Positions 2,330-15,325 of a stretch of 64,000 bases of DNA are shown piece by piece. The position numbers and the translations under genes were made by a program. Location: contig CAVSIV010000006.1 of the NCBI GenBank assembly GCA_963728205.1, forward strand, positions 192,001-256,000. Direction: 5' to 3'. The first letter of the stretch is position 1; each line of letters begins with the position of its first letter. A model generated the notes under the pieces. That model saw only the letters and a list, made by a program, of their open reading frames with translations, was not told where the DNA came from and made no database searches. Source of the DNA: an uncultured Chloroflexia bacterium. Lineage in GTDB: Bacteria > Chloroflexota > Dehalococcoidia > UBA2979.

Positions 2330-3159
2330 CACAACGGCCTCACGGTTGGTCGTCAGAGAACCAGACACCTGGCGTGTCGAGCTGGTAGGCGCGGCTAACC
2401 CAATCTGGAGTCGCATAAGGCTCGCCGTAGCGGAACATCAAGATGAGGCCAGGGTTGAGTTCAGGAGCGCTTGAGCCACCATCGCCCGCCCCGCATGGCC
2501 TCGAATCACCTCTGCGGAAGCTTCGAGCGTGAGGTTCTTGATGTGGAATCCATCAGGACGGAGCTGAGCAGCCGGCCACCAGACAGATACGCTCCCGTTG
2601 TGGACCACCGGTCGCGCCATCAAGAAGTGTTTCGACTTGTTGAAGGCTTCAACGCGTGTCCTATGCTCCTCGGCGCGCTTGCGTGCCGTCCGCACCATTC
2701 CGTCAAGCACATGGGGGAGCGCCGTCGGCAATCTGCTCCCGCCGCGAAGCGTTCACCCTAGCGGCCGCCAACTCGTCGTCACTCGGGAGGTGGAGCACTC
2801 CACGGACTCCGTCTGGCGAAAGGCCCTCGAGCAGGGCGATCGCCTTCTCCTCGGTGTAACTCCCGTCACCGCGGACTTGTACGCGGTCCATCAAAGCCAG
2901 CAGCGAGTGTCGACCGTCTCCGGGCTGCCACTCGTGGAGAGCAAAGAGCGAACCGAGCGTGTCCTCGCTCGCTTCCATCTCCGCCTCGAATGCGGCTACC
3001 AGCAGAAAGCAACGACGCGAAATCACCCATTCCCTCGATGGGCTCGCGGAGAATCGCCTCCGCCTCGAATGCCCGCTGGGCCGTTGCGAACTCGACTGCT
3101 GCCCGGATGATCGCCGCATCATCGAACTCCGGGTTATCCCTCGGATACTGGATGAGCAT
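2330..3159 (-). pseudogene. Hypothetical protein gene broken by several frameshifts (pseudogene or assembly indels)
   Basis: Consecutive minus-strand fragments in different frames (MLIQYPRDNPEFDD... / ...FLLVAAFEAEMEASED... / ...LPHVLDGMVRTARKRAEEHRTRVEAFNKSKH...); lower GC than flanks; 3' boundary approximate. Confidence 0.45.
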
Positions 3160-4318
3160 CAGTGACTTGCTCCCCGATCGCCCCCGAACGGAGAAGCGAG
3201 GCGACTTGGGCGGCGCCATAGCCGAGGTCGGGGAGTAGCGCGCGCGTCTGGCCCGGCGAGCGGCGCCGGCTGACCGGCCCGCACCCTGCCTCCGAGAAGA
3301 ACAGCGGCGAGCGCACCACGCGAAATCGCCGGGCCGTCGCCGGGCCCGGCCGCACTTCCATGACCATGCCCCGCTCCGCGAAGTACGGGTGCGCGGCCGC
3401 CTCCGGCATCGTCTGCACGAGCCCGTACGGTGCGCCGGCGCGCTCCATCTCGCGCGCGACCGTTGCCGCGGGCAGCGCGGCGACCCAGCCGCCGACGACT
3501 GCATTCGCCGCCTCCGGGTTCGCCGGCATCGCCTCGCCGGCGTGGCCGAGCGCCGCCGCAATCCGTGCGAAGTTGTGCGCGCCGCCGATGTTGATCGTGA
3601 CGTGGCGGCCGTCGCTCGTCGCGTGGATCGGGTGGCGGAACGGCTTCCAGTCCGCCTCGGTCGCGCCGTTCAGCGCCGGCACCGCGACCTCGCTCAGCAT
3701 CGCGAGCTGGCAGTCCATCAGCGTGGTGTCGATGCGCTGGCCGCGGCCGGTGTGCTCGCGGTCGTAGAGCGCGGCGACGATGGCGGAGAAGCAGGTCATG
3801 CCGGTGACGATGTCGGCGACGGTGACCCCGGGCGCGAACGGCGCGTCGCCGCCCTGCGCCTGCTGCTGCACCCAGAGCCAGCCGGCCTCGGCATGGGCCG
3901 TCGCGCCGTAGGCGCGCCGCGACGAGAACGACCCGCTCTGCCCGAAGCCCGAGATCGACGCGTAGACGAGCCGCGGGTTGGCGCCCGCGAGCGCGTCGTA
4001 GCCGAGCCCCAGGCCGTCCATCACCCCCGGCGTGAAGTTCTCGACGAGCACGTCGGAACGCGCGGCGAGGTCGCGCGCGACCGCCGCGCCGTCGGGGTGC
4101 TTGAGGTCGAGGCTGATCGAGCGCTTCCCCAGGTTGTTCGCGACGCTGCCGTTGCTCGGCACGGGGCCGTCGCGCCGGTCCGGCGGCGGCAGCGGGGCGT
4201 CGACCTTCGTCACCTCGGCGCCCATGTCGGCGAGCAGGCGCGTGCAGTACGGCCCGGCGACGACGCGGGTGACGTCGAGGACACGGATGCCGTCGAGGAT
4301 GCGGCGAGCGGTCGGCAT
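3134..4318 (-). CDS. CaiB/BaiF family CoA-transferase (class III)
   Basis: LDGIRVLDVTRVVAGPYCTRLLADMGAEV, NLGKRSISLDLK, DVLVENFTPG; C-terminus may contain indels. Confidence 0.93.
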   Translation of the reverse strand: MPTARRILDGIRVLDVTRVVAGPYCTRLLADMGAEVTKVDAPLPPPDRRDGPVPSNGSVANNLGKRSISLDLKHPDGAAVARDLAARSDVLVENFTPGVMDGLGLGYDALAGANPRLVYASISGFGQSGSFSSRRAYGATAHAEAGWLWVQQQAQGGDAPFAPGVTVADIVTGMTCFSAIVAALYDREHTGRGQRIDTTLMDCQLAMLSEVAVPALNGATEADWKPFRHPIHATSDGRHVTINIGGAHNFARIAAALGHAGEAMPANPEAANAVVGGWVAALPAATVAREMERAGAPYGLVQTMPEAAAHPYFAERGMVMEVRPGPATARRFRVVRSPLFFSEAGCGPVSRRRSPGQTRALLPDLGYGAAQVASLLRSGAIGEQVTDAHPVSEG

Positions 4319-4671
4319 GGCGGTGGCCTTTCGTGAGCGCCGCCCCAGCGGAGCGAGCGAGGGCGCGCCGCGACAATGCGGCCCTCAGGCGCGAGTGTCC
4401 AGGCACGTGCATGCGAACCGGCCACCACGACGGCTCACGGCGGCGCGACTCGAAGCGATGAGCATTGGTGCAAAGAGGCGACCGTCGGTCGCATGGGGCT
4501 CTCGCGAGCGGAAGTGACCACGCGCCGCTGACCGGCTCTCACTAAGCGCCAGAGGCGCGCCAGCTTAGCCACGTCCTACGCGCAGAGCAGGCCGCTGTCG
4601 ACCGCGCGTCTCGCGCGTCCTGGTCTAGCGTCACCATTTCAAGTTGGCGATTCGCGCCTGGATATGGCGAA

Positions 4672-5132
4672 TTAGATGACTCGCCCGTGCAGGCAATGTT
4701 TCATCGTAACCGTACGCCTGAAGCCCTTCGCTTCGCGCTGAGAGTATCTGGTCAACCAAGCGAGCAGTCGTCCTATCCAACTCTGTCGCGCTGCGATCAA
4801 TTTTAGATTATCAATGAACGGCCCAAACCAATGGTCGAGTTCGCCGTACATACGTTTGTGGATCTCGCTCCACCATTGTTCGCTCACTGTCGTGCTCGTC
4901 CGCTTCGCAACGTCGAGTTCCAACGCGGCGTTGATGAGAAAGTGTGTCCACGAAAATTGGGCCTGAAACATCGCAACAATGGTGCGACGGCGGTCCTCGG
5001 TCCGGATTCTGCGCGCGCTCCTGCCGGCGCAACCAGTAAGAAGCGACCTCCCCGCCGAACGTGCCCAGCAGACTTGCACACCCGAGCAGCAGCAGCGGCG
5101 GCCGCGATCGCGACGGTCAACGTGTCGCTCAT
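4672..5132 (-). pseudogene. Hypothetical protein with N-terminal hydrophobic segment, frameshifted
   Basis: TACGCT -10-like box then ATG 5132 (MSDTLTVAIAAAAAA...); continues in other frames to ...EDRRRTIVAMFQAQFSWTHFLINAALEL... Confidence 0.35.
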
Positions 5133-5431
5133 CGCCGCGGAGCGTACTCCAGACGACGTAATGAGACGAACGTCGGGAGCAGGCAAAGTCCCACTTCAGC
5201 GCGACCCTCAGGCAACTCGCCCGGTCGTCCTCGCTACTTCGCTGACTGCAAAACCGGGCGCAGCCCCCGCTCCGCTGGCAAACGGGATGAACCCTAACGA
5301 CGACCAACGGTTTCGCGTGTTCGGTTTGTGGTGGACGCTTTTGAGGCGCGATAGAACACCCTGTCGCTCCGGAACACGTCGACTCCGACCGGTGCTGCTG
5401 AGAGCGCCACTGCGAGCAGGAGAGAGCGTCA

Positions 5432-5951
5432 TCAAGCCCCGGTATGCATACCTTCGATTAACTCTTCGATCGATTCTTCCCATTCACGCAGTGTGCGTCC
5501 GTCGGATACAGATCTCCCGTATGTAGAGAACGCCATCCGGTCACCATACGCCCCGGAAACTTTACCGCGAATTCTGAGTGCAGACTTGCGTATGCTGGCG
5601 ATTGGGTGCCTTGTCTCTATTCGACGCAGCGCGTGGACTACGTCACCAGGGCCGTGGAACGTTGGCGTCGGCAATTGGTACGTATCGTAGTCGAAATCGG
5701 CGCCGTGTAACTCCTCGCGTGCTCGGTACTCGAGCCATTCCGCAATGTCAGTCGGCGGACTCCGATGGCAGCCTCTTTCGCGGGCACGGTTCGCCGCTTC
5801 TTCTCGCCGCCGCCGTCGCTCCTGCGAGCTCACTCTTTCGCTCGAGCACCCACTCTTTAGCGAAGACAATCGCCTGGTTTACCGCGCCTGCGATGAGCCC
5901 AGAAGCTCGCGCCGACAAGTGCCAACTCGCGGGCCTGAGAGATTTGCTCAT
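5432..5951 (-). pseudogene. Hypothetical protein with N-terminal TM-like segment, frameshifted
   Basis: MSKSLRP...GLIAGAVNQAIVFAKEWVLERK then a shift to ...IAEWLEYRAREELHG...EELIEGMHTGA*; boundary with the upstream gene uncertain. Confidence 0.35.
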
Positions 5952-5959
5952 CGCTATCC

Positions 5960-6495
5960 TGTTCTTCCGCCCCATCGCGATCTTCTTGATCTGCTTGGCG
6001 TCGAGGTACACGCCCTTCAATTCCCAGTAGTCGAACGTCAGTCGTACGAGAGAGAAGAATGTTAGCAGCGTCCAGATGAACAAGAACCATGCGACGCCAA
6101 CCGTGAGACGAAGCCACAGCAGCATGCTCTCCCACACGCAGGGGCTGGCGATCACCGCGGCGAGTCCCGAAGAAGACGTCATCAGGGCCAAGCCCGCGGC
6201 GAGCGTAAATGGGAACGCGTGCTCCGCGAGTCCTTTCCGATTCGTTCGCATGAACACGAACAGGCTCGCTCGGGGAGGAATGTCAGCAACAACGCAAAGA
6301 CAGCAATGATGATGCCCAACAGCGCGGTCGCCACTCCGACGACAGCAGTCTCGTAACCGTCGAAGGCGCCGGCTAGCCGGCGACAGGGCACGAGGAGGGA
6401 GATTGCCAGCGCGGAAAGGACCGCGGCTGGGAAGGCCACGTCGACGAAGATATTCTTCTCTGCTCCCAGAAGAGCCGCGCGAAGTGCGGAGTCAC
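5960..6495 (-). pseudogene. Multi-pass (~4 TM) membrane protein, frameshifted
   Basis: Hydrophobic fragments ...AFPAAVLSALAISLLV...VATALLGIIIAVFALLLTFL / AFPFTLAAGLALM...LTVGVAWFLFIWTLLTFFSLVRLTF. Confidence 0.55.
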
Positions 6496-6501
6496 GTGTT
6501 T

Positions 6502-7332
6502 CTAGTTCTCAGCGGCCTGTTGGGTGTCCGGAATCGTGTCGAGCAACCGGTGGGCGAGGGCCTCACCTGTCTCCTCGGCTGGCCGGTCGATAGGGATGAT
6601 CACGTCGGTCAGTGACGTAGTTGTAGACGCGTCGCTCGCCGGCGGAGCTGGCCCTGCGCCTTCACTCGGCCGTAACGATGCGCATAAATGGAGAGGTCCT
6701 CCAACTCGGTGTCGCTCACCTGAAGGGACTCACCGGCGGGAGCCACTGCCGTCACTAGCACGGACTTGGCTTTCCAGTGTTCGAGGAAGTCCTTCGCGGT
6801 TTCAGAACCCTGCGGGAAGTGAGGGTTCGGCAGGTGGAAGGAGACCGTGACTCGCGCTACCGAGTCGACCTCTTCCAACCACCGCTCGAAGTCTTGCTCA
6901 TCAACGAGGAAGTCCACCGTCAGCCCGAGGACCTCGGAGAACGTCTCGTTAAGAATTCCTCGGAACCGAGCCCTGATTGAAGCGACTGTCAATGTCCGGT
7001 AGGTTTCCTCGGCCGCGATCCGCCCGTTTTCAAGGTTGATCGCATAGTGTGTGAATGACGCATGGCCTTCGGTGCCGGGAAGGATTTCGAAGTCTTCCGT
7101 CTCTTCGTTGTACACCGAGGCGCTTGATTCTCTCTCGTAGCCAATCCGACCCCACAACGCGTTCCGGTCCTGCAGGACTGATGGCCGCGACAGGCGCCAA
7201 TGCCTTCGGTAGTATTCGGGCCGTAATGGACGGGGCCAGCGCCCCTGTGATGGCCTGGCGAAGGAGAATATTCTGACCGGGACCGTTCGGCTCCTGAGTG
7301 ATCTGTAGCAAAACAACGCGACGTCTCGCCAT
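6502..7332 (-). pseudogene. Soluble hypothetical protein (DUF4747-like features), frameshifted
   Basis: ATG 7332 after GGAGG (MARRRVVLLQITQEP...); core frame ...LWGRIGYERE...FERWLEEVDSVARVTVSFHLPNPHF...; ends ...QQAAEN* at 6502. Family assignment tentative. Confidence 0.5.
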
Positions 7333-7691
7333 TGACCCCTCCGGCATACGATGCCGGGCGAACTTAGCACGATTACGCCTGCGTGAGGACGTCAGACAGC
7401 CACATCGGTCAGCGCGATCGGTGGAAGCACGACTCCCAACTGTTCCTCCGAACATCCTCCACGAGAAAGGACACCACCATGCCGCACCCTCCGCATTCCG
7501 ATTGGCCGGCGGCCTTTGGCGACCCGCGCGCGACCCGACGCAATCGCGGCCGCGCTGGCGTCGTCAAGATTCATCGATAAGAAGGACGAACGGGCGGACA
7601 CCGAGCGAGGGGAATCGCTCATCGGCTACGTGGGTGAACCCGCACGGGCACATCCCGATTGAAGCTAAGGGGACCCAGTGAAGCGAGGACA

Positions 7692-8600
7692 TCAAGAGCC
7701 GTGTGCCTGCATCAGCACGGCCAGCGCGCGGTGATTCCGATCGAGGGGCTCGGCTGCGGTCTCGACGAAGGCCGCCGCGCGACCGCGCACGCCGTCGATG
7801 CCACCGGCGTTCCGCAGCAGGTCGACGAGTGGCGGGTTGAGCCACTCGGACTCCGGGGCGGCGCGCTGCTCGGGTTCGACGCCGTCGGAGATTCCGTTGG
7901 CGCGTGCGAAGAGACGGGCGCGGATCACGAAGGCCACGAGGCTGCCGGGGTCGGGCAGCGACGCCACGTTCAGATCGTGGTGCGCGATCGCCTCACAGAG
8001 TGCGGGCGGGAAGTTCCAGTGGGTGGCGAGCGCGGCGCCGAGGTCGGCGTCGGTGTAGCCGAGGATCACCTCCTCGGCGCGGACGACGGGGATTCCCTGG
8101 GCCGCGGCCATCTGGCGGGCCGAGGCGAGGGCCCCGGGGCGGTGCTGATCGAGCGCGAGACGGCCGATGTTGTGCAGGACGCCGGCGGTGAACGCCTCGT
8201 CGAGGTGCTGCCGGCGGGCCCTGGAGAGGAGTTCGGCGAGCACGCCGACGGTGACCGAGTATCGCCAGAACCGCTCCTGGTCGACGTCGCCGGGGCCGTG
8301 CATCGTGTCCATCACGCTCGAGGCCAGCGCCGTGGAGCGGATGGTGCGGAATCCCAGCAGCACGACGGCGTCGCGCACGGTGGTGATGCGGCGGGGGAAG
8401 CCGTAGTAGGCGGAGTTCGCGAGGCGCAGGATCTTGGAGGTCAGCGCCTGGTCGCTGGCGATTGCGAGGGCGAGCTCAGGAGCGGAGAGGCGATCTTCGC
8501 CGGCGATCTGGAGGATGCGCACGGTGACGGCCGGCAGCGGGCGGAGTTCCCCGATCTCGGCAACGAGCTCATCGAGCGCCGGGTGAGCGGCCAACGACAT
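7692..8600 (-). CDS. HDOD domain signal-transduction protein
   Basis: LRPLPAV, DQALTSKILRLANSAYYG, ITTVRDAVVLLG, AFTAGVLHNIGRL, LGAALATHWNFP. Confidence 0.93.
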   Translation of the reverse strand: MSLAAHPALDELVAEIGELRPLPAVTVRILQIAGEDRLSAPELALAIASDQALTSKILRLANSAYYGFPRRITTVRDAVVLLGFRTIRSTALASSVMDTMHGPGDVDQERFWRYSVTVGVLAELLSRARRQHLDEAFTAGVLHNIGRLALDQHRPGALASARQMAAAQGIPVVRAEEVILGYTDADLGAALATHWNFPPALCEAIAHHDLNVASLPDPGSLVAFVIRARLFARANGISDGVEPEQRAAPESEWLNPPLVDLLRNAGGIDGVRGRAAAFVETAAEPLDRNHRALAVLMQAHGS

Positions 8601-8662
8601 CCCTGCTGCCTGTGCCGTCGCTCACTCCTCGCGTCCGTGCGGTAGAGCTTGTAGGAAGAGGG

Positions 8663-8731
8663 GAATGCACCGCGGGGTGAAACGCCTGCCAGGGCCGGTA
8701 GTAGACAGACGTTTCACCCCGCGACGCATTC
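8663..8731. repeat. Long imperfect inverted repeat upstream of the HDOD gene
   Basis: CGCGGGGTGAAACG (8671-8684) pairs with CGTTTCACCCCGCG (8710-8723); outer GAATGC (8663-8668)/GCATTC (8726-8731). Confidence 0.85.
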
Positions 8732-8735
8732 AGTT

Positions 8736-8770
8736 TCAAACCGGCGCCGCTCGCGGGTGGGCGGCGCCGG
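8736..8770 (-). terminator. Probable intrinsic terminator after the small peptide gene
   Basis: Perfect 10-bp stem CCGGCGCCGC (8741-8750)/GCGGCGCCGG (8761-8770) followed by a short TTT on the minus strand, 10 nt after the stop codon. Confidence 0.65.
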
Positions 8771-8780
8771 AATCGTGCTG

Positions 8781-8897
8781 TTACATGCCCCAGATGAAGA
8801 CGCCGAACGTCCCCAGGTGCATAACAATCGCGCTGCCGATAACAGCGGCGCCCACGCCGTACTGAAGAAGCTTGTCCACCGATAGAAGCTTGGCCAC
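8781..8897 (-). CDS. Unannotated 38-aa hydrophobic peptide MAKLLSVDKLLQYGVGAAVIGSAIVMHLGTFGVFIWGM (candidate signalling/precursor peptide)
   Basis: GTG start with GGAGG (8907-8911) 9 nt upstream, TAA stop, own terminator, candidate promoter; too short for the ORF track. Confidence 0.75.
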   Translation of the reverse strand: MAKLLSVDKLLQYGVGAAVIGSAIVMHLGTFGVFIWGM

Positions 8898-8944
8898 CGA
8901 CCCGTTCCTCCACTAACTCCCGCCTCTGCAGTCGGGATGCTGTG

Positions 8945-8979
8945 AAACTAGGAACGAGGTTCTCGCCAAGCTCTCGCCA
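8945..8979 (-). promoter_or_regulatory. Candidate SARP/BTAD-type promoter: TGGCGAGA direct repeat with 11-bp period plus -10 TAGTTT
   Basis: Minus strand TGGCGAGA-gct-TGGCGAGA (8979-8972, 8968-8961), then 10 nt, then TAGTTT (8950-8945). Confidence 0.55.
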
Positions 8980-9081
8980 CACCCCGTAGGCCCTCTTAAA
9001 TCTGATCAAATCTATGAGTCCCTGGCCGGAGCGCGGGCCAGTCCCCCACGAAGAATCGGCGCGAGAGGCGCGGATTAGCAG

Positions 9082-12000
9082 TCAAACTCGGGGGATCTGG
9101 AGCCTCAAGCTGTCGAGTGCTGCGCCAGAAATCACGCGGGCGTACTCCGACTGGACGGCCGCCGACGGCTCCTCCCCGAGCTCGTCCCTCAGCGCATCGT
9201 GATACCGGCGGTATACCCGCGCGGCTAACTCCAAGTGCCCACCACGGGAGTGAGCCTGCATCTGATAGCGGACTGCATCTTCGTTCAACGGGTCGATCGC
9301 AAGAATCGAATCCGTGAGGACAATCACCTCAGGAAACTCTGACCGGCGCAGCGCCTGGACGGCCAGTGTGACGAGCGACGCGACGTAACGGTCCTCATAC
9401 TGGCGACGCGTCTCACTTGCCCACTCCGTTTGGAACGGTTCAGCAAACGGCCCGCGGTAAAGCCGAATCGCGGCGAGAACCTCATCGAGCCAACGTTTGC
9501 CGCCCGGTCGTTCGCGCTCGGCAGCCGACATGTGGGTTTCAAATTCGCGAGCGTCGTACGCGATGTCGAACGCGTCGCTTACCTGATATCCCTCGTCCGA
9601 CTGGACGACGATCTGGCGGTCGATTGCCTTCCGCAGCCGGTAGAGGGTCGAGTGGAAGGCGCTGTTGATTTGGTCCTGTGCCGCGTCAGGCCACAACTCG
9701 AGCGCGATTTGCTCCTTGCGCAATGGCCGTCCGGAGTGCAGTAGGAAGAAGAACATCTCCTTGCTGCGCTCGCTTCGCCACTCCAAGTCGCTTACCTGAC
9801 GCCCCCCCATGAGCACACGCGGCGTTCCAAACGCTTCTGCGCGGATCTGCGACGTGGACGCTGGTGTCGTCGGGAAGGCCGGCTCGGCTCCGCGCACTCG
9901 CGGAATCCGGTCTCGGAGGGTCTTGAAGTAATCACCGCCAGCTCGACGAGCCACGGCGAACTCGACCAACTCAATATGTTGACGCGCTTCGACATAGAGG
10001 AACTCGTCATAGCCAACACGACCCGCGAGATTCGCAACCTGCTCGAGCTCCTGCACCGCGCGGCTGCGTTGCCGGTTGGCGAGGTGGGCGGCCGCCAATC
10101 GGAGCCTCGCAATCGCCTCCTCGCGGGGTTCTTCTGCTTCGCGGGCATCAGCCACGGACTGATTGAGGACGCTAGTCGCAGCCTCGATCCGCCCTTCCGC
10201 GAGAAGAACCGCGCCGAGCGCGCTCCTGAATTGAGCACGAAACAGCAGCATCCCCCCCTGTTCAGCCGTTCGCAGCCCGTGTTCGAGCAGGGAACGCGCG
10301 CGGGTCAGTTCCCCTTGCTCCCGATACACCAGCGCAAGGCCCAAAGTCGCACCCATGATTAACGGCGGGTCATCGATGTCCTGCGCGGCCTTGAGAGCCA
10401 GGGTCCGAAGAGAGGCAGCAGTCTGCAGTCCCCCAGATCGTGCTCCACGGCAGCGAGGTTCTCGTGGCCATAGGCTTCACCTCGTGCGTAGTGCAAATCC
10501 CGCGACCGCTGGATCACGGCGTTGAATGTGTCGCGAGCCGTCTCAAGCTCGCTCATGATCTTTTGCAACTCGCCGATGTTGCCCATCGTCGTCACTTGTT
10601 GCCTGAGGTCTCCGACCGCGCGCCATAGCCGCTGGGACGTCGTGAAGGCCTTCATCGCACCGGCAAGCTCACCGGTGTACCCGAGGCAGTCTGCCGAGCC
10701 CGTCGTAGCATTCAGCGGATCGGTGCTGATCGCCCAACTCCTCGAAGGCACGGGCTCCCCGTTCGAAGTTCTCGCGTGCCCGGTCGAACAAGCCGCTGAC
10801 GCCGAGAGCGATGCCTTCTTCCAAGTCGAGTTCGGCATGAACTTCGGGTTCGTCTACGGACTCCCGCGCAATTCCCCTGGCAGTCCGGCACGCCTCGAGC
10901 GCGTCCGTCAACCGACCCAGATGCCGCAAACCGACAGAGCGATATATCTCGCGTTTTACCTGCTGACTCGGGCTAAGACCGCGCTCGTCCACCGCTTCGA
11001 GCGTGCGAGGCCGCGGTGTCCCTCGCCCGATTTGAGAGCGTGCCGAGCGCGAGCCAAGGCGAGTTCGGTCTCCGAACGCAGCACGTCTTCGGGTAGCCGG
11101 TCCAGCCACCCGACAAGGGTCGACCATTCACCCCGCTGATAGAGCTCGTCACGCAGGTCTAGTATTTCGGGGACAGCCTCCGACCAATCCTTAGCATCAA
11201 GTGCCATCTCAACCGCTTCCCGCCGCATGCCGCGCCGGGCGTACAGGGCAGCAGACGATCGGCGGAGTTCCAGAATCCTCTCCGGATCCTCACGCTCCAT
11301 ACGCGACACCAAGTGCTCACGGAGGATGGAATGGATGCGGTACCAGTTCCCGTCCTCTAGTCGAACTATCAGATGGGTAGCGCGCTCTACGCTCACGCAA
11401 TCTCCGAGCAGCATCACTGTGTCCGCTCAACTCTCGGACGAGGGGCACGTCGAATGACTGCAGTACCGCGCAGGACTCGAGCAGGTCGAGCTGCTCGCTT
11501 GCGAGCCGCGCGAGCACCTCCTGATCGACAAAGTCCGCGAGGATGAACTCTGACGCTGAGGTGTCGCTGGGCCGCGTAGGGTCCGCATGTTCGCCAAGAA
11601 TCGCAAGTGCCGCCGCCCACCCATCAGCTCTGCGGATCACGGATGCCTGGGCAACACCCTCGGTGACGCCAAGCACCCGTAGCAGTTCCAGTGCTTCGTC
11701 GTCGGAGAATTGCAGATCGCGCACGGTAAGGCTCAGCGCCCTCCGCTGGGCAGTGAGACGGGGGAGGGAGGGAAGGAGCGTCCACGAGCGCGTCAAAACA
11801 ACCAGGCGCATGCTCAACGGCAAGCCCTGAGCCAGGGTATCGAGCAGCTCGAGCGCGGCGTCGGCTCCCTCAAGCGCGTTCAAGTCGTCGACCACGAGGA
11901 TGAAGAGCTCATCCACTGACTGGTGGATCACAGCGGCGAACTCAGACACGAGCGCGCTCGGGTCGGCCCGTTCGCCAACGTTCTCCAGACGTTCGGCAAA

Positions 12001-12305
12001 TGCCTGAAGCTCGTCCGGCGCGATCCCGCGCACTGCGCTCGTGAGGTTCGCCAGGAGCGCTAGCGGGTCGCGATCCTGCCGGTCGAGTGACAACCAGCAC
12101 GCGGGCAACCCAACCTCGGCGAGCCAGTCAACCGCCAGCGTTGACTTTCCGTAGCCCGCTGGTGCGCTGACGACGATCACGTCGTGCTCGAGCGCGTCGG
12201 AGAGGATGCGGTGCAAGCGGTCGCGGCGAATCGTGTCTGCCCGCCGACGCGGAGGCGTCAGTCGGGCGAACTACTCAAGAACTTCGGTGGGCGCTTCGCA
12301 GTCAT
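9082..12305 (-). CDS. Large MalT-like NTPase - TPR - OmpR-type wHTH - BTAD transcriptional regulator (~1070 aa), interrupted by about five frameshifts
   Basis: Fragments in order: LTPPRRRADTIRRDRL, Walker A APAGYGKST, Walker B LVVDDLN, GWAAAL, WYRIHSILREHL, TPR-like helices, WRSERSKEMFFFLL...LWPD...STLYRLRK (wHTH), LYRGPF...DPLNEDA...ELGEEPS (BTAD). Confidence 0.85.
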
Positions 12306-12436
12306 CGCCAACCCCTCAGGTAACTGTAGGGGTGAAAAATACGGCGCGTCATTACCGGACGGCTCTCAGGGGGGCTGGTGCCCGCGCGCTACCCTGCGCT
12401 CGCCCACTCAGCGCCCCCCGGGGGAAGGATTGCCAC

Positions 12437-13192
12437 ATGCCATACGTCGACCGCGACGGCGTCCAGGTCTACTACGAGAGCCACGGCGACGGTCCGGCCG
12501 TGCTGCTCAGCCACGGCTACTCGTCGACGTCGCACATGTGGGCCGGCCAGGTGGAGGCGCTCGCCGGCGACTACCGCCTCATCACCTGGGACATGCGCGG
12601 CCACGGCAGGACCGACAGCCCCGACGACCGGGACGCCTACAGCGAGCAGGCCACCGTGGAGGACATGGCGGCCATCCTCGCGGCCTGCGGCGAGGAGCGC
12701 GCGGTGATCGGCGGGCTCTCGCTCGGCGGCTACATGTCGCTCGCCTTCTACCTCGCCCACCCCGAGATGACCCGCGCCCTCATGCTCTTCGACACCGGCC
12801 CCGGCTACCGCAACCCGAAGGCGCGCGAGGGCTGGAACGAGACCGCCGTTCGCCGCGCCGAGCGCTTCGAGGAGCGCGGGCTCGACGCCCTCGGCGGCGG
12901 CGACGAGGTCCGGCGCGACCTCCATCGCTCCGCGACCGGCCTCGCCAACGCCGCGCGCGGCATGCTCGCGCAGTTCGACGACCGCGTGATCTCGTCGCTC
13001 GACCAGGTCAGCGTCCCGACGCTCGTGCTCGTCGGCGCGAACGACGAGCCGTTCCTCGCCGGCACCGACTACATGGTGAACAAGATCCCCGGCGCGACGA
13101 AGGTCGTGATCGCCGACGCCGGCCACGCGTCGAACATCCACCAGCCGGCGGCGTTCAACGACGCCGTGCGGTCGTTCCTCGCGACCCTCTAG
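12437..13192 (+). CDS. Alpha/beta fold hydrolase
   Basis: HGY, WDMRGHG, GLSLGG nucleophile elbow, AGH. Confidence 0.92.
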   Translation: MPYVDRDGVQVYYESHGDGPAVLLSHGYSSTSHMWAGQVEALAGDYRLITWDMRGHGRTDSPDDRDAYSEQATVEDMAAILAACGEERAVIGGLSLGGYMSLAFYLAHPEMTRALMLFDTGPGYRNPKAREGWNETAVRRAERFEERGLDALGGGDEVRRDLHRSATGLANAARGMLAQFDDRVISSLDQVSVPTLVLVGANDEPFLAGTDYMVNKIPGATKVVIADAGHASNIHQPAAFNDAVRSFLATL

Positions 13193-13196
13193 CGGC

Positions 13197-13733
13197 GTGC
13201 CCGACGCGCCGTCGCCGCGGCTCGTGATCGCGGTGGCCGGCGGGCAGGACGCCGGCGCCGAGGCGCTGCGGCAGGCCCACGAGGTCGGCCGCACGCTCGG
13301 CGCGCTCGGCCATGTCACGCTCACCGGCGGGCGCGGCGGCGTGATGGAGGCGGCCTCGCGCGGCGCGCAGGAGGCCGGCGGCCTCGTGCTCGCCATCCTC
13401 CCGGGCGACGACGCGAGCGAGGCTAACCCCTACGTCGACATCCCCGTCGTCACCGGCCTCGGCCTCGCGCGCAACACGATCGTCGCGCGCACGGCGCAGG
13501 CGCTGATCGCGATCGACGGGCAGTACGGCACGCTCTCCGAGATCGCGTTCGCGCTGATCGCCGGCACGCCGGTCGTCGGGCTCGGCACGTGGGAGGCGCG
13601 CGACGCCGCCGGCACGGCGGCGCCGGTGGTGCCGGCGGCGTCGCCGCTCGACGCCGTGGAGATCGCGGTGCGGCTCGCGAGCGGCCGGCCGCCGCGACGG
13701 CGCGCCTCGCCGCGCGACCGTCCGCGGGGGTAG
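13197..13733 (+). CDS. LOG/SLOG family (TIGR00725-like) Rossmann protein
   Basis: TGGRGGVMEAASRGA, TGLGLARN, GQYGTLSEIAFA. Confidence 0.88.
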   Translation: MPDAPSPRLVIAVAGGQDAGAEALRQAHEVGRTLGALGHVTLTGGRGGVMEAASRGAQEAGGLVLAILPGDDASEANPYVDIPVVTGLGLARNTIVARTAQALIAIDGQYGTLSEIAFALIAGTPVVGLGTWEARDAAGTAAPVVPAASPLDAVEIAVRLASGRPPRRRASPRDRPRG

Positions 13734-13791
13734 CCTGCCGCCGCCGCGGGCGGCATGCTCGCACCGCGACCACCGGGGCGGAGGAGGCGCG

Positions 13792-14196
13792 ATGACGGCC
13801 GACACCGAGCGCGAGCCCGACTTCATCTCCTGGGTCGGCTTCCAGACCACCGACCGCCGCGAGGGCTACGTGCTCTCGGAGCTCGACGTCGCGCCGCGCC
13901 ACCTCAACCCCTACGGCACCCTCCACGGCGGCGTCCTCTACGCGATGGCCGACACCGGCATGGGCGCGGCGCTCGCGGGGACGCTGGCGGCCGGGGAGAC
14001 CTCCGCGACGATCGAGATCAACATCGTCTACATCGCGGCCGTGACCTCCGGCCGCGTGCGCTGCGCGACGCGCGTCGTGCACCGCGGCAGCCGCATCGCG
14101 ACGCTGGAGTGCGAGCTGCACAACGACTCCGAGCGCGGCGAGCGGCTCGTGGCGAAGGCGCTGGGCACGTTCGCCGTCGTCCAGGTCCGCTCGTAG
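13792..14196 (+). CDS. PaaI family thioesterase (hotdog fold)
   Basis: HLNPYGTLHGGVLYAMADTGMG. Confidence 0.93.
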   Translation: MTADTEREPDFISWVGFQTTDRREGYVLSELDVAPRHLNPYGTLHGGVLYAMADTGMGAALAGTLAAGETSATIEINIVYIAAVTSGRVRCATRVVHRGSRIATLECELHNDSERGERLVAKALGTFAVVQVRS

Positions 14197-14295
14197 CGCC
14201 CGCGGCGCGACGCGTACGGGCGGCGGCGGGCGCTGTGGCCGACTGTCGTCCCGCGGACACTTCCCGCGCACCCGAAACCGCGTAGAATCCGGCGC

Positions 14296-14433
14296 ATGAA
14301 CCGACTCGCTCGAGCCTGTACCCACGTCGCCGTTCCGGCGTTCGCGCTCGTCGCGATCGCCGCCGGCGCGCTGCTCGCGAGCCCGCTCGTGTTCATCTGG
14401 GGCATGTCGGCGCAGCGGATGCTGTTCCGCTAG
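14296..14433 (+). CDS. Unannotated 45-aa hydrophobic peptide MNRLARACTHVAVPAFALVAIAAGALLASPLVFIWGMSAQRMLFR
   Basis: TAGAAT -10 box (14283-14288) 7 nt before ATG (leaderless pattern); fills the intergenic gap; shares VFIWGM with the 8781-8897 peptide. Confidence 0.65.
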   Translation: MNRLARACTHVAVPAFALVAIAAGALLASPLVFIWGMSAQRMLFR

Positions 14434-14518
14434 CCGCCCAGGGGCCGGGCCGGGATTCTCGCGTCGCGGTCGAGGCGAGCGCACACCGCTCGCCGTTTCG
14501 TCGTGTCCGCCTCCGGCC

Positions 14519-15325
14519 CTAGCTGCCCAGCACCGCGCGCCACGACGCGGCGTCGAAGCCGCCGTCGAGGTGGATGGTCTGGCCGATGAGCATCGGCGCC
14601 TGGTCCGAGCACACCCACGCCACCGCCGCCGCCACGTCCTCGGGCGCGACGTTGCGCCCGGCCGGGACGTGCGGCCGCACGCGGTCCGAGGTCTCCGCGC
14701 GGTAGGAGTGCTCGCCCTCGGAGCCCTCGACCCAGCCGGCCGACACCGCGTTGACGCGGATACCGCGCGGGGCGAGCTCGACGGCGAGGTACATGGTGAG
14801 CGACGCCAGCGCGGCCTTGCTCACGCCGACGGCGGAGTAGTCGGGCATGTAGTGGAAGGCGCCGGGCGAGAGCAGGTTGACCACCGCGCCGCCGCCGCGC
14901 GCCTCCATCAGCGGCGCGGCGGCCTGCACCGCGCCCCACGGGCCGAAGACGTTGACGTCCATCGTGCGGTGGAGGTGCTTCGGGCGCTGCTCGATCGCCG
15001 GCCGCGGGCGCTCGAGGCCGCGCGCGGCGTTGTTCACGAGGATGTCGAGCCCGCCCCACGCCGCGCCGACGTGCGCGAACAGCGCGTCGACCGCGGCCGC
15101 GTCGCCGACGTCGGCCTGGCGCGTCTCGGACTCCACGCCGAGCGCGCGGCAGTCGGCGGCGGTCTGCTCGGCCGCCTCCGCGGAGCGCGCGTAGTTCACG
15201 AGGACGTGCGCGCCCTCGCGCGCGAGGCGCAGCGCGATGGCGCGGCCGATGCCGCGCGAGCCGCCGAGCACGACGGCGCGCTTGCCGGCGAGGGAGGGGT
15301 AGCGGGGGCCGGTGGGGTCGGTCAT
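14519..15325 (-). CDS. SDR oxidoreductase (FabL-like enoyl reductase)
   Basis: GGSRGIG, DILVNNAA, YSAVGVSKAAL, IRVNAVSAG. Confidence 0.9.
   Translation of the reverse strand: MTDPTGPRYPSLAGKRAVVLGGSRGIGRAIALRLAREGAHVLVNYARSAEAAEQTAADCRALGVESETRQADVGDAAAVDALFAHVGAAWGGLDILVNNAARGLERPRPAIEQRPKHLHRTMDVNVFGPWGAVQAAAPLMEARGGGAVVNLLSPGAFHYMPDYSAVGVSKAALASLTMYLAVELAPRGIRVNAVSAGWVEGSEGEHSYRAETSDRVRPHVPAGRNVAPEDVAAAVAWVCSDQAPMLIGQTIHLDGGFDAASWRAVLGS

Follow-up and report, generated by a model that had tools for sequence, protein, structure and literature searches.

A candidate peptide signalling cassette of Chloroflexota and its probably decayed copy in a Dehalococcoidia genome

The window analysed here, a stretch of 64,000 nucleotides (nt) from a Dehalococcoidia genome of the phylum Chloroflexota (G000:C6:192001-256000), carries on its minus strand a large regulator gene, a SARP-type promoter box and a gene for a small prepeptide. 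On balance we slightly favour the reading that these are a decayed member of a regulator and prepeptide cassette found in many Chloroflexota, the intact form of which would be an autoinducing peptide signal loop. What recurs among relatives is the domain make-up of the regulator, the box with its spacing, a prepeptide open reading frame (ORF) ending in a short tail, and the order of these genes. The source genome G000 is a metagenome-assembled genome (MAG) of 4.1 Mb in six contigs, with 72-74% G+C, 89% completeness and 5.6% contamination. All elements named in an initial annotation, which was made from the sequence of the window alone, were recovered where it had placed them on the minus strand (Table 1). 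Relatives of the regulator are encoded on 321 stretches, 80 of which were retrieved, and 76 of these are assessable loci. Genomes of relatives are coded G001, G002 and so on and their loci L024, L036 and so on; G001 and G003 belong to the same genus as the window.

Regulator, prepeptide gene and promoter box in relatives

Intact homologues of the regulator measure 1048-1099 amino acids (aa) in the closest loci; for the five nearest relatives whose frame is full-length, the range is 1006-1133 aa. Residues 38-439 of an intact homologue match MalT (PDB 8bob, 5.9e-31; NCBIfam MalT 1e-67, below the equivalog cut-off of that family), the middle matches tetratricopeptide repeat (TPR) families including TPR_MalT, and residues 829-1088 match the SARP domain of AfsR (8hvr, 7.7e-13) as well as EmbR (3.8e-10). 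Because of the MalT, TPR and AfsR matches, the family is regarded as a MalT-type STAND regulator in which the LuxR-type output is swapped for a C-terminal SARP module. RRNPP receptor families were not matched in Pfam or NCBIfam, where the matches were to MalT, AfsR and generic TPR. The related loci are mainly labelled as Chloroflexota (Dehalococcoidia, Anaerolineae, Thermoflexus, Tepidiformales and one Thermosporothrix isolate), and a few MAGs are labelled otherwise. In G002 (locus L024) two paralogous regulators stand in tandem (2749-6036 and 6096-9347; 1095 and 1083 aa), and a prepeptide gene follows only the second.

The initial annotation had proposed that small ORFs should be sought beside homologous regulators, and such ORFs were indeed found. 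In 10 of 11 relatives' loci a small ORF lies on the same strand 90-230 nt after the regulator stop and shows a basic start, a hydrophobic stretch and a short tail. A search by rule (18-100 aa, same strand, at most 600 nt past the stop, a hydrophobic window of 12 or more residues preceded by Lys or Arg, and a tail of 2-12 residues) detected an ORF of this kind in 46/76 loci. The controls gave 12/76 on the opposite strand, several of these being the antisense of the same ORF, 8/61 in a window 2000-2620 nt downstream and 7/49 in a window before the regulator. When the rule was loosened the count was 52/76 as compared with 19/76, and clear members were gained, e.g. those with the tails ECEWTC and CEGEWTC.

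The tails are 5-8 residues long and fall into groups that track the relatedness of the regulators. EVIWGM is present in relatives, and further groups end in EMILPW, GVIWPW/GVVWPW, EVIFPW/EVIYPW/EVIWPW, EVIWDL, GMIWGL, GVAWGT, EVIWGS, EFVYG or EVVWHG; others carry EGDWY/EGDWG, PWMYA-like sequences, GPDGIGP, QSPFF, GAPNSFDP-like or GAAPYQSY-like sequences, among still others. The tails vary even within one genus, in which EFVYG, EVVWHG, VFIWGM and TGACGG occur. In an alignment of the window prepeptide with 19 homologues (alignment A2), Ala stands at position -1 in all 19 non-window rows, position -3 is small or aliphatic, and the tail follows directly. Ala at -1 together with a small or aliphatic residue at -3 is the pattern of signal-peptidase I sites, and the AxA-type site of the prepeptides is consistent with predicted cleavage by this enzyme.

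A length of exactly 33 codons is kept in 14 loci from four clades, and GGGAG- or GGAGG-like sites precede the start of most of the homologous ORFs. Codon differences summed over pairs amount to 13 synonymous and 6 non-synonymous in the 6-codon tail and to 108 and 104, respectively, in the signal part, from small numbers and non-independent pairs; this would fit a translated ORF with the tail as its constrained part. The prepeptides have no family in Pfam or NCBIfam, and a search of the ESM Atlas with a 33-aa prepeptide returned only clusters named 'hypothetical protein', with scores of at most 0.84. In locus L086 the regulator is followed by two prepeptide-like ORFs (+21 and +376 from its stop) that share the tail QSPFF, and this pair may be a tandem duplication of the peptide gene.

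The prepeptide gene of the window is preceded by a 22-bp box of two 11-bp direct repeats and a -10-like hexamer. According to PMC10936776, the direct repeats in SARP targets are spaced by 11 or 22 bp, and 8 bp lie between the 3' repeat and the -10 element; the afs box (22 bp) is made up of two 11-bp repeats that overlap the -35 region, and AfsR, itself a STAND protein, activates afsS, the small gene next to it. The window and its relatives agree within one bp with this rule. The box followed by 7 bp and TAnnnT was found on the same strand in 24/76 loci and on the opposite strand in 0/76, so that the 11-bp-period repeat next to a -10 box, which the initial annotation had likened to SARP targets, is reproduced with the same geometry in other genomes. 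Among the 20 closest loci it is present in 19, and the twentieth is one base off. A second direct repeat, AGATTT-gatc-AGATTT, lies further upstream in the window; it is conserved in G001 and occurs in either orientation in 6 of the 20 closest loci. In its strict form the double repeat of the box has only two sites in the 4.1-Mb genome. The other one, at G000:C1:331416, is followed by TAGGGT at the same spacing and lies upstream of an ORF of about 85 aa which by sequence resembles a LuxR-type helix-turn-helix (HTH) protein.

The window copy and its surroundings

Homology of the window regulator to its intact relatives runs from about 12264 down to 9085, as judged by tblastn and windowed alignment. 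In Pfam its pieces match AAA_16 (6e-05), TPR_12, TPR_MalT and BTAD (8e-18), with Trans_reg_C (0.0038) below the cut-off. The SARP-module matches (BTAD and Trans_reg_C) fall in the piece 9082-10356, with a winged HTH (wHTH) and then BTAD, the order of SARP regulators, at about 9136-9750. Three-frame translation of the piece 12216-11317 contains Walker A (APAGYGKST) and Walker B (LVVDD) motifs, and the window copy thus has the P-loop NTPase of a MalT-type STAND protein; it lacks the single uninterrupted frame. When 30-residue windows of an intact homologue were aligned to the three frames and the best frame was tracked, four certain frame switches were located, at about 11392, at 11001, at 10690-10673 and at 10437-10428. 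A fifth switch near 12266 is probable from the sequence, since the frame of the ATG at 12305 differs from that of the NTPase part and stops after 15 codons, while the match to the conserved N-terminal motif starts at 12264, right behind a stop and in another frame. In the closest loci the translated regulators are uninterrupted in 16 of 16 cases.

Judged on these features, the window regulator is probably decayed and the window cassette probably non-functional. The initial annotation had envisaged a working autoinduction loop at this place, and in this genome the loop is most likely broken, because the regulator carries four to five frameshifts, the AxA site of the prepeptide is lost and a 6-codon duplication has been gained. 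The C-terminal part of the regulator forms an ORF of 424 aa with an ATG at 10356. It was considered as a stand-alone activator, and it is unlikely to act alone because no ribosome-binding site is visible before this ATG.

The 38-codon ORF described in the initial annotation, led by GGAGG and with a basic start, a hydrophobic core and a GVFIWGM end, is present in the window. Compared with its relatives, it has an 18-nt (6-codon) tandem duplication in the n-region (8866-8900) and TFG in the place of AxA, and the tail VFIWGM has Val at +1 where most relatives have Glu or Gly. Translation of the whole genome in six frames yields the motif VFIWGM only twice, at sites 5.6 kb apart; for its 18-base pattern, 0.06 occurrences are expected in the window and 2 are observed. 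The second occurrence belongs to another ORF of the prepeptide family (Table 1), which has neither box nor adjoining regulator, carries TAGAAT 7 nt before its ATG and is flanked, in native DNA of high G+C, by a PaaI-type thioesterase gene on one side and an SDR gene on the other. The orthologous thioesterase gene was found in one same-genus genome, where no counterpart of the second ORF follows it. A 20-nt inverted match (8783-8802 and 14388-14407) links the two motif copies. The shared hexapeptide together with strong codon bias alone suffices to account for this DNA identity, and no relative was found with an arrangement comparable to an inversion between the two copies.

Table 1. Features of the cassette region and of a second prepeptide-family ORF, in window coordinates
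Feature	Position	Strand	Basis
Regulator, probable pseudogene (MalT-like NTPase, TPR sensor region, C-terminal wHTH + BTAD)	9082..12305	-	Pfam, three-frame translation, tblastn, windowed alignment
AGATTT-gatc-AGATTT direct repeat, about 20 nt upstream of the box	8998..9013	-	sequence
22-bp SARP-type box, two 11-bp direct repeats TGGCGAGAGCT / TGGCGAGAACC	8979-8958	-	sequence, comparison with relatives
-10-like hexamer TAGTTT, 7 bp after the box	8945..8950	-	same spacing in relatives (TAnnnT)
GGAGG ribosome-binding site, 9 nt before GTG	8907..8911	-	sequence
Prepeptide ORF, 38 codons, GTG start, ends GVFIWGM	8781..8897	-	ORF list, alignment A2 (19 homologues)
GC-rich hairpin, 10-bp stem, immediately behind the stop codon, then TTTG only	8741..8770	-	folding
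Long hairpin, 32 predicted pairs, 13-nt loop, then C/T-rich tract	8657..8735	-	folding, comparison
Intact stand-alone HDOD gene, 302 aa, about 73% G+C	7692..8600	-	Pfam HDOD (PF08668) 2.6e-54
Second prepeptide-family ORF, 45 aa, VFIWGM + 8 further residues	14296..14433	+	alignment, motif search

Two hairpins follow the peptide gene, and the 190 nt that contain both of them fold with z = -4.2. The initial annotation had given the gene a hairpin terminator of its own; the GC-rich stem is there, but no more than TTTG follows it and a consensus terminator scan called neither hairpin. We regard the first hairpin as a weak candidate for an intrinsic terminator. The arms of the long inverted repeat (8663-8688 and 8706-8731) are 26 nt long and 88% complementary, the pairing extending further to the full hairpin. 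This hairpin recurs after the prepeptide gene in G001 and G003, whereas the copy of G002 is broken by an N. In a three-way alignment of the window, G001 and G003 the loop is identical and 5 of the 32 pairs are maintained by changes on both sides. The inverted repeat was also considered as a repeated mobile element and rejected, being single-copy in the genome, and an Rfam search of 7000-15000 gave only sub-threshold microRNA-type matches on the long hairpin, which were treated as chance. We read the long hairpin and its C/T-rich tract as a putative structure, specific to the genus, that would form the 3' end of the peptide transcript or stabilise it; alternatively, the palindrome may be a site for a protein.

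For the genes downstream of the cassette, the survey took the first called gene, or the first two, behind the regulator of each of the 76 loci and covered 135 proteins. The next same-strand gene encodes an HDOD protein in 11/76 loci, all of them within the 20 closest, and usually starts a few tens of nt past the peptide stop; these 11 cassette-linked HDOD proteins make up a single clade (support 93/95). The gene after the cassette-linked HDOD encodes a conserved protein of about 350 aa that has no family in Pfam or NCBIfam (L036:8650-9717, with equivalents in L038-L054). This protein is also present in four loci without a called HDOD and has no match in the genome of the window. In 18/76 loci a DUF5317 membrane protein is encoded by the first or second same-strand called gene (e.g. 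L060:7498-8037), past the prepeptide ORF where one was found. A GAF-HD-GYP protein is next in 3/76 loci and a receiver-domain protein in 5/76; a stand-alone HD-GYP gene lies downstream in G033, and MFS transporter genes lie downstream in two same-genus genomes.

The HDOD protein of the window is a clear member of its family (PF08668, 184 bits with a cut-off of 22.9, residues 20-209), and both hairpins stand between its gene and the peptide gene. It has 21 matches in G000, the HDOD paralogue family of this lineage being unusually large, and because of these 21 matches its adjacency to the cassette may be secondary. The proposal of the initial annotation that HDOD is an output of the system thus has comparative support from the 11 of the 20 closest loci in which it is the next gene, and does not directly extend to the HDOD gene of the window.

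Some further neighbours were noted. Genes for oligopeptide-type SBP_bac_5 proteins or OppC-type permeases adjoin the cassette at L071:8911-10692, L072:9116-10891 and L099:8404-9330. A gene for a B12-binding radical-SAM protein lies directly after the prepeptide with the tail EGDWY in G004 (L058:7537-9078) and 2.4 kb downstream of the one with CEGEWTC in G024 (L031:11536-12912); in both genomes a LuxR-type regulator of about 500 aa is encoded upstream. The radical-SAM genes may hint at peptide modification in that genus.

In base composition the regulator and peptide region (61-67% G+C) is below the genome (about 72.5%). The regulators of two other genomes of the same genus have a third-position G+C of 0.66-0.72, which is low compared with their neighbouring genes. 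On the far side of the HDOD gene, the tract 4400-7600 has 55-62% G+C and no convincing ORFs; Pfam gave no family for the ORFs 4672-5307, 4831-5526, 5432-5869, 5748-6257 and 6609-7370 within it, and the tract may be further decayed or foreign DNA. A tRNA scan of the window found no tRNA.

Proposed activation, release and sensing of the peptide

From the recurrent features we infer activation of the peptide gene by the regulator, cleavage and export of the product and, above all, its sensing by the TPR region. The regulator would be a STAND-type protein with a MalT-like NTPase, a TPR sensor region and a C-terminal SARP module (wHTH and BTAD) that binds the 22-bp box, probably as a side-by-side dimer like AfsR, with the box 7 bp before a weak -10 element. 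Bound to the box, it would activate a gene of 33-38 codons, the product of which would be a Sec-type prepeptide, and AxA-type cleavage would free only the tail of 5-8 residues outside the cell (VFIWGM in the window; EVIWGM, EMILPW, EVIWDL and others elsewhere). In one clade the transcript most likely runs on into the HDOD gene and that of the 350-aa protein, and in other clades it would run on into genes for a DUF5317 membrane protein, a GAF-HD-GYP protein or a receiver protein. The tail is most likely a diffusible signal that is re-imported and sensed by the TPR region of its own regulator; this sensing would activate the NTPase and complete a positive loop. Of such a system the promoter, the peptide gene, the two hairpins and an unrelated resident HDOD gene would remain in the window. 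Sensing by the TPR region is suggested by the one-to-one pairing of regulator and peptide, by the fast change of the tail even within a genus and by STAND proteins being ligand-gated. By analogy with MalT, the bound ligand would license multimerisation that depends on ATP.

Several observations weigh against this interpretation. A prepeptide ORF is missing within 600 nt of the regulator in 24-30 of the 76 loci, and the box in its given form was found in only 24. Tails that follow the phylogeny of the regulators are what shared ancestry alone would give. Faster divergence of the TPR region between peptide types was looked for and not found: across different tails the regulators share an identity of 0.60 in the TPR region versus 0.61-0.67 in the other domains (NTPase 0.61, DNA-binding 0.66), and no domain-specific signal of co-diversification emerged. 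Genes for peptide transporters adjoin the cassette in only 3 loci. The HDOD protein of the window falls outside the cassette-linked clade, of which it is not an orthologue, and groups with a non-cassette copy of G023; neither box nor prepeptide was found upstream of its nine closest relatives. Finally, the frameshifts are read from the assembly, and a local assembly fault may be an alternative to decay. Structure prediction of the complex between the TPR region (residues 355-840 in alignment A1) and the whole 33-aa prepeptide gave scores on both sides of the mark of 0.32 (0.40, 0.20 and 0.05).

The lack of extra divergence in the TPR region fits another arrangement, which we consider somewhat unlikely, namely that the peptide is output only. 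The regulator would activate the gene and the tail would act outside the cell, as an antimicrobial, as a metal- or surface-active peptide or as a signal for another receptor such as a membrane protein, while the TPRs sense a different input, e.g. a metabolite, on the model of MalT, or a phosphorylation state, on that of AfsR. Conservation of the box and of the gene order speaks for regulation and not for sensing, and the DUF5317 membrane proteins that follow the peptide in 18/76 loci could be the true receptors. AfsR-AfsS is moreover a precedent for a large SARP activating a small neighbour the product of which is not its ligand, as far as the account in PMC10936776 goes. However, the tight pairing of one regulator with one peptide combined with rapid change of the tail is the pattern of a receptor and its pheromone, and 5-8 residues are short for most effector roles.

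The apparent decay of the window copy would itself be an artefact if the cassette were intact and working and the frameshifts were local errors of the assembly or the consensus, within an island of the MAG that has lower G+C and varies between strains. The fragmentation, incompleteness and contamination of this MAG allow for such errors, the reading frame of the regulator alternates between only two of the three frames, the flanking low-G+C tract likewise lacks convincing ORFs, and the promoter, ribosome-binding site and peptide ORF are intact. General indel error is nevertheless not the cause, because the assembly contains 723 uninterrupted frames of at least 500 aa, 82 of them of at least 1000 aa. 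The shift sites are not at long homopolymers, one G5 run excepted, and the closest relative of the window regulator, from the same genus and another assembly (G001:C191, locus L092), also has four frame switches, at other positions. An intact cassette with errors of assembly is an improbable explanation.

That both window copies of the prepeptide lack a clean AxA site suggests another possibility, that the product is not released at all and remains as a single membrane helix with a short outside tail, modulating a partner, for instance DUF5317, a transporter or a kinase. A single hydrophobic helix makes up most of the product, and DUF5317 and MFS membrane proteins are frequent neighbours. In the 19 non-window rows of alignment A2, however, the residues at -1 and -3 are invariably those of a cleavable site, and within clades it is the tail that is conserved, not the helix, so that an uncleaved micro-membrane protein seems distinctly improbable. 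It is highly improbable that the tail is the core of a ribosomally synthesised and post-translationally modified peptide (RiPP), altered for example at Trp or Cys by an enzyme encoded nearby and with the regulator as pathway activator: the radical-SAM genes of G004 and G024 and the two Cys of tails such as ECEWTC and CEGEWTC would fit, but most loci lack a modifying enzyme in the one or two called genes downstream, none is encoded near the window copy, and the N-terminal part resembles a Sec signal with an AxA site, unlike a RiPP leader.

Relation to known systems and meaning for the Chloroflexota

The presumed signal loop resembles three described systems in parts. AfsR-AfsS of Streptomyces coelicolor, as outlined in the relevant passages of PMC10936776, shares with it a large regulator composed of a SARP module, an NTPase (NOD) and TPRs, and a small neighbouring target gene whose weak -10 element is closely preceded by two 11-bp repeats that form a 22-bp box. 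The SARP part of the intact homologue matches that of AfsR, but the order here is NTPase-TPR-SARP, with the SARP module C-terminal, in contrast to SARP-NOD-TPR in AfsR; in addition, the NTPase is MalT-like and the phylum is Chloroflexota as opposed to Actinomycetota. The small genes differ as well, AfsS being a 63-aa cytoplasmic protein and the product here a signal-peptide-bearing prepeptide with a tail of 5-8 residues. MalT, the STAND activator of Escherichia coli, corresponds to the N-terminal 400 residues of the intact homologues in NTPase and arm, and a TPR_MalT-like sensor region follows; its C-terminal LuxR-type HTH is replaced by wHTH and BTAD, and the proposed ligand is a peptide and not maltotriose.

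Receptors of the RRNPP type are HTH-TPR or phosphatase-TPR proteins of 300-400 aa. The regulators described here are not homologous to them and, with about 1050-1100 aa, contain a STAND NTPase and a SARP output. Release of the peptide may here need signal peptidase only, and the phylum is not that of the RRNPP(A) systems (Rap/Phr, NprR/NprX, PlcR/PapR, PrgX, Rgg/SHP and AimR/AimP), which belong to Bacillota. Both have, side by side, a gene for a cytoplasmic TPR protein, the known or presumed receptor, and a gene for a small propeptide that carries a secretion signal and ends in a short peptide; in the RRNPP(A) systems, according to PMC10075063, this C-terminal part is the signal, and the peptides diversify between close lineages.

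Literature searches found no paper joining RRNPP and Chloroflexota, none mentioning DUF5317, and nothing relevant on BTAD, STAND, MalT or TPR with secreted peptide, peptide pheromone, quorum or Dehalococcoidia. Chloroflexi are not mentioned in the body sections of the RRNPP surveys PMC10075063 and PMC9765709, the supplements of which could hold candidates outside Bacillota. The opinion of the initial annotation that no system of such architecture has been described agrees with this outcome. The cassette family joins two known kinds of system, receptor-propeptide signalling and SARP-activated small genes, in a combination for which no published description was found.

In a wider and more tentative view, the Chloroflexota may possess a widespread peptide signalling class of their own, independent of RRNPP. 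A peptide of 5-8 residues, often with Trp at position 4, would be sensed by the TPRs of a MalT-like STAND NTPase-SARP protein and would induce its own production, with HDOD, HD-GYP or DUF5317 proteins as outputs, fast diversification of the peptide and decay in some lineages. PMC10075063 treats genetically encoded peptide signalling through cytoplasmic receptors as a trait of the Bacillota. Since the box, the regulator and the hexapeptides are short and synthesisable, the hypothesis is directly testable. If it is true, a second, non-homologous class of receptors would be added, and the known range of such signalling would come to include a mostly uncultured phylum with high abundance in soils, sediments, aquifers and reactors. 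It would also provide a defined candidate ligand for STAND/SARP regulators, the ligands of large SARPs such as AfsR being still unclear, and would connect HDOD and HD-GYP proteins, about whose inputs little is known, with peptide signals.

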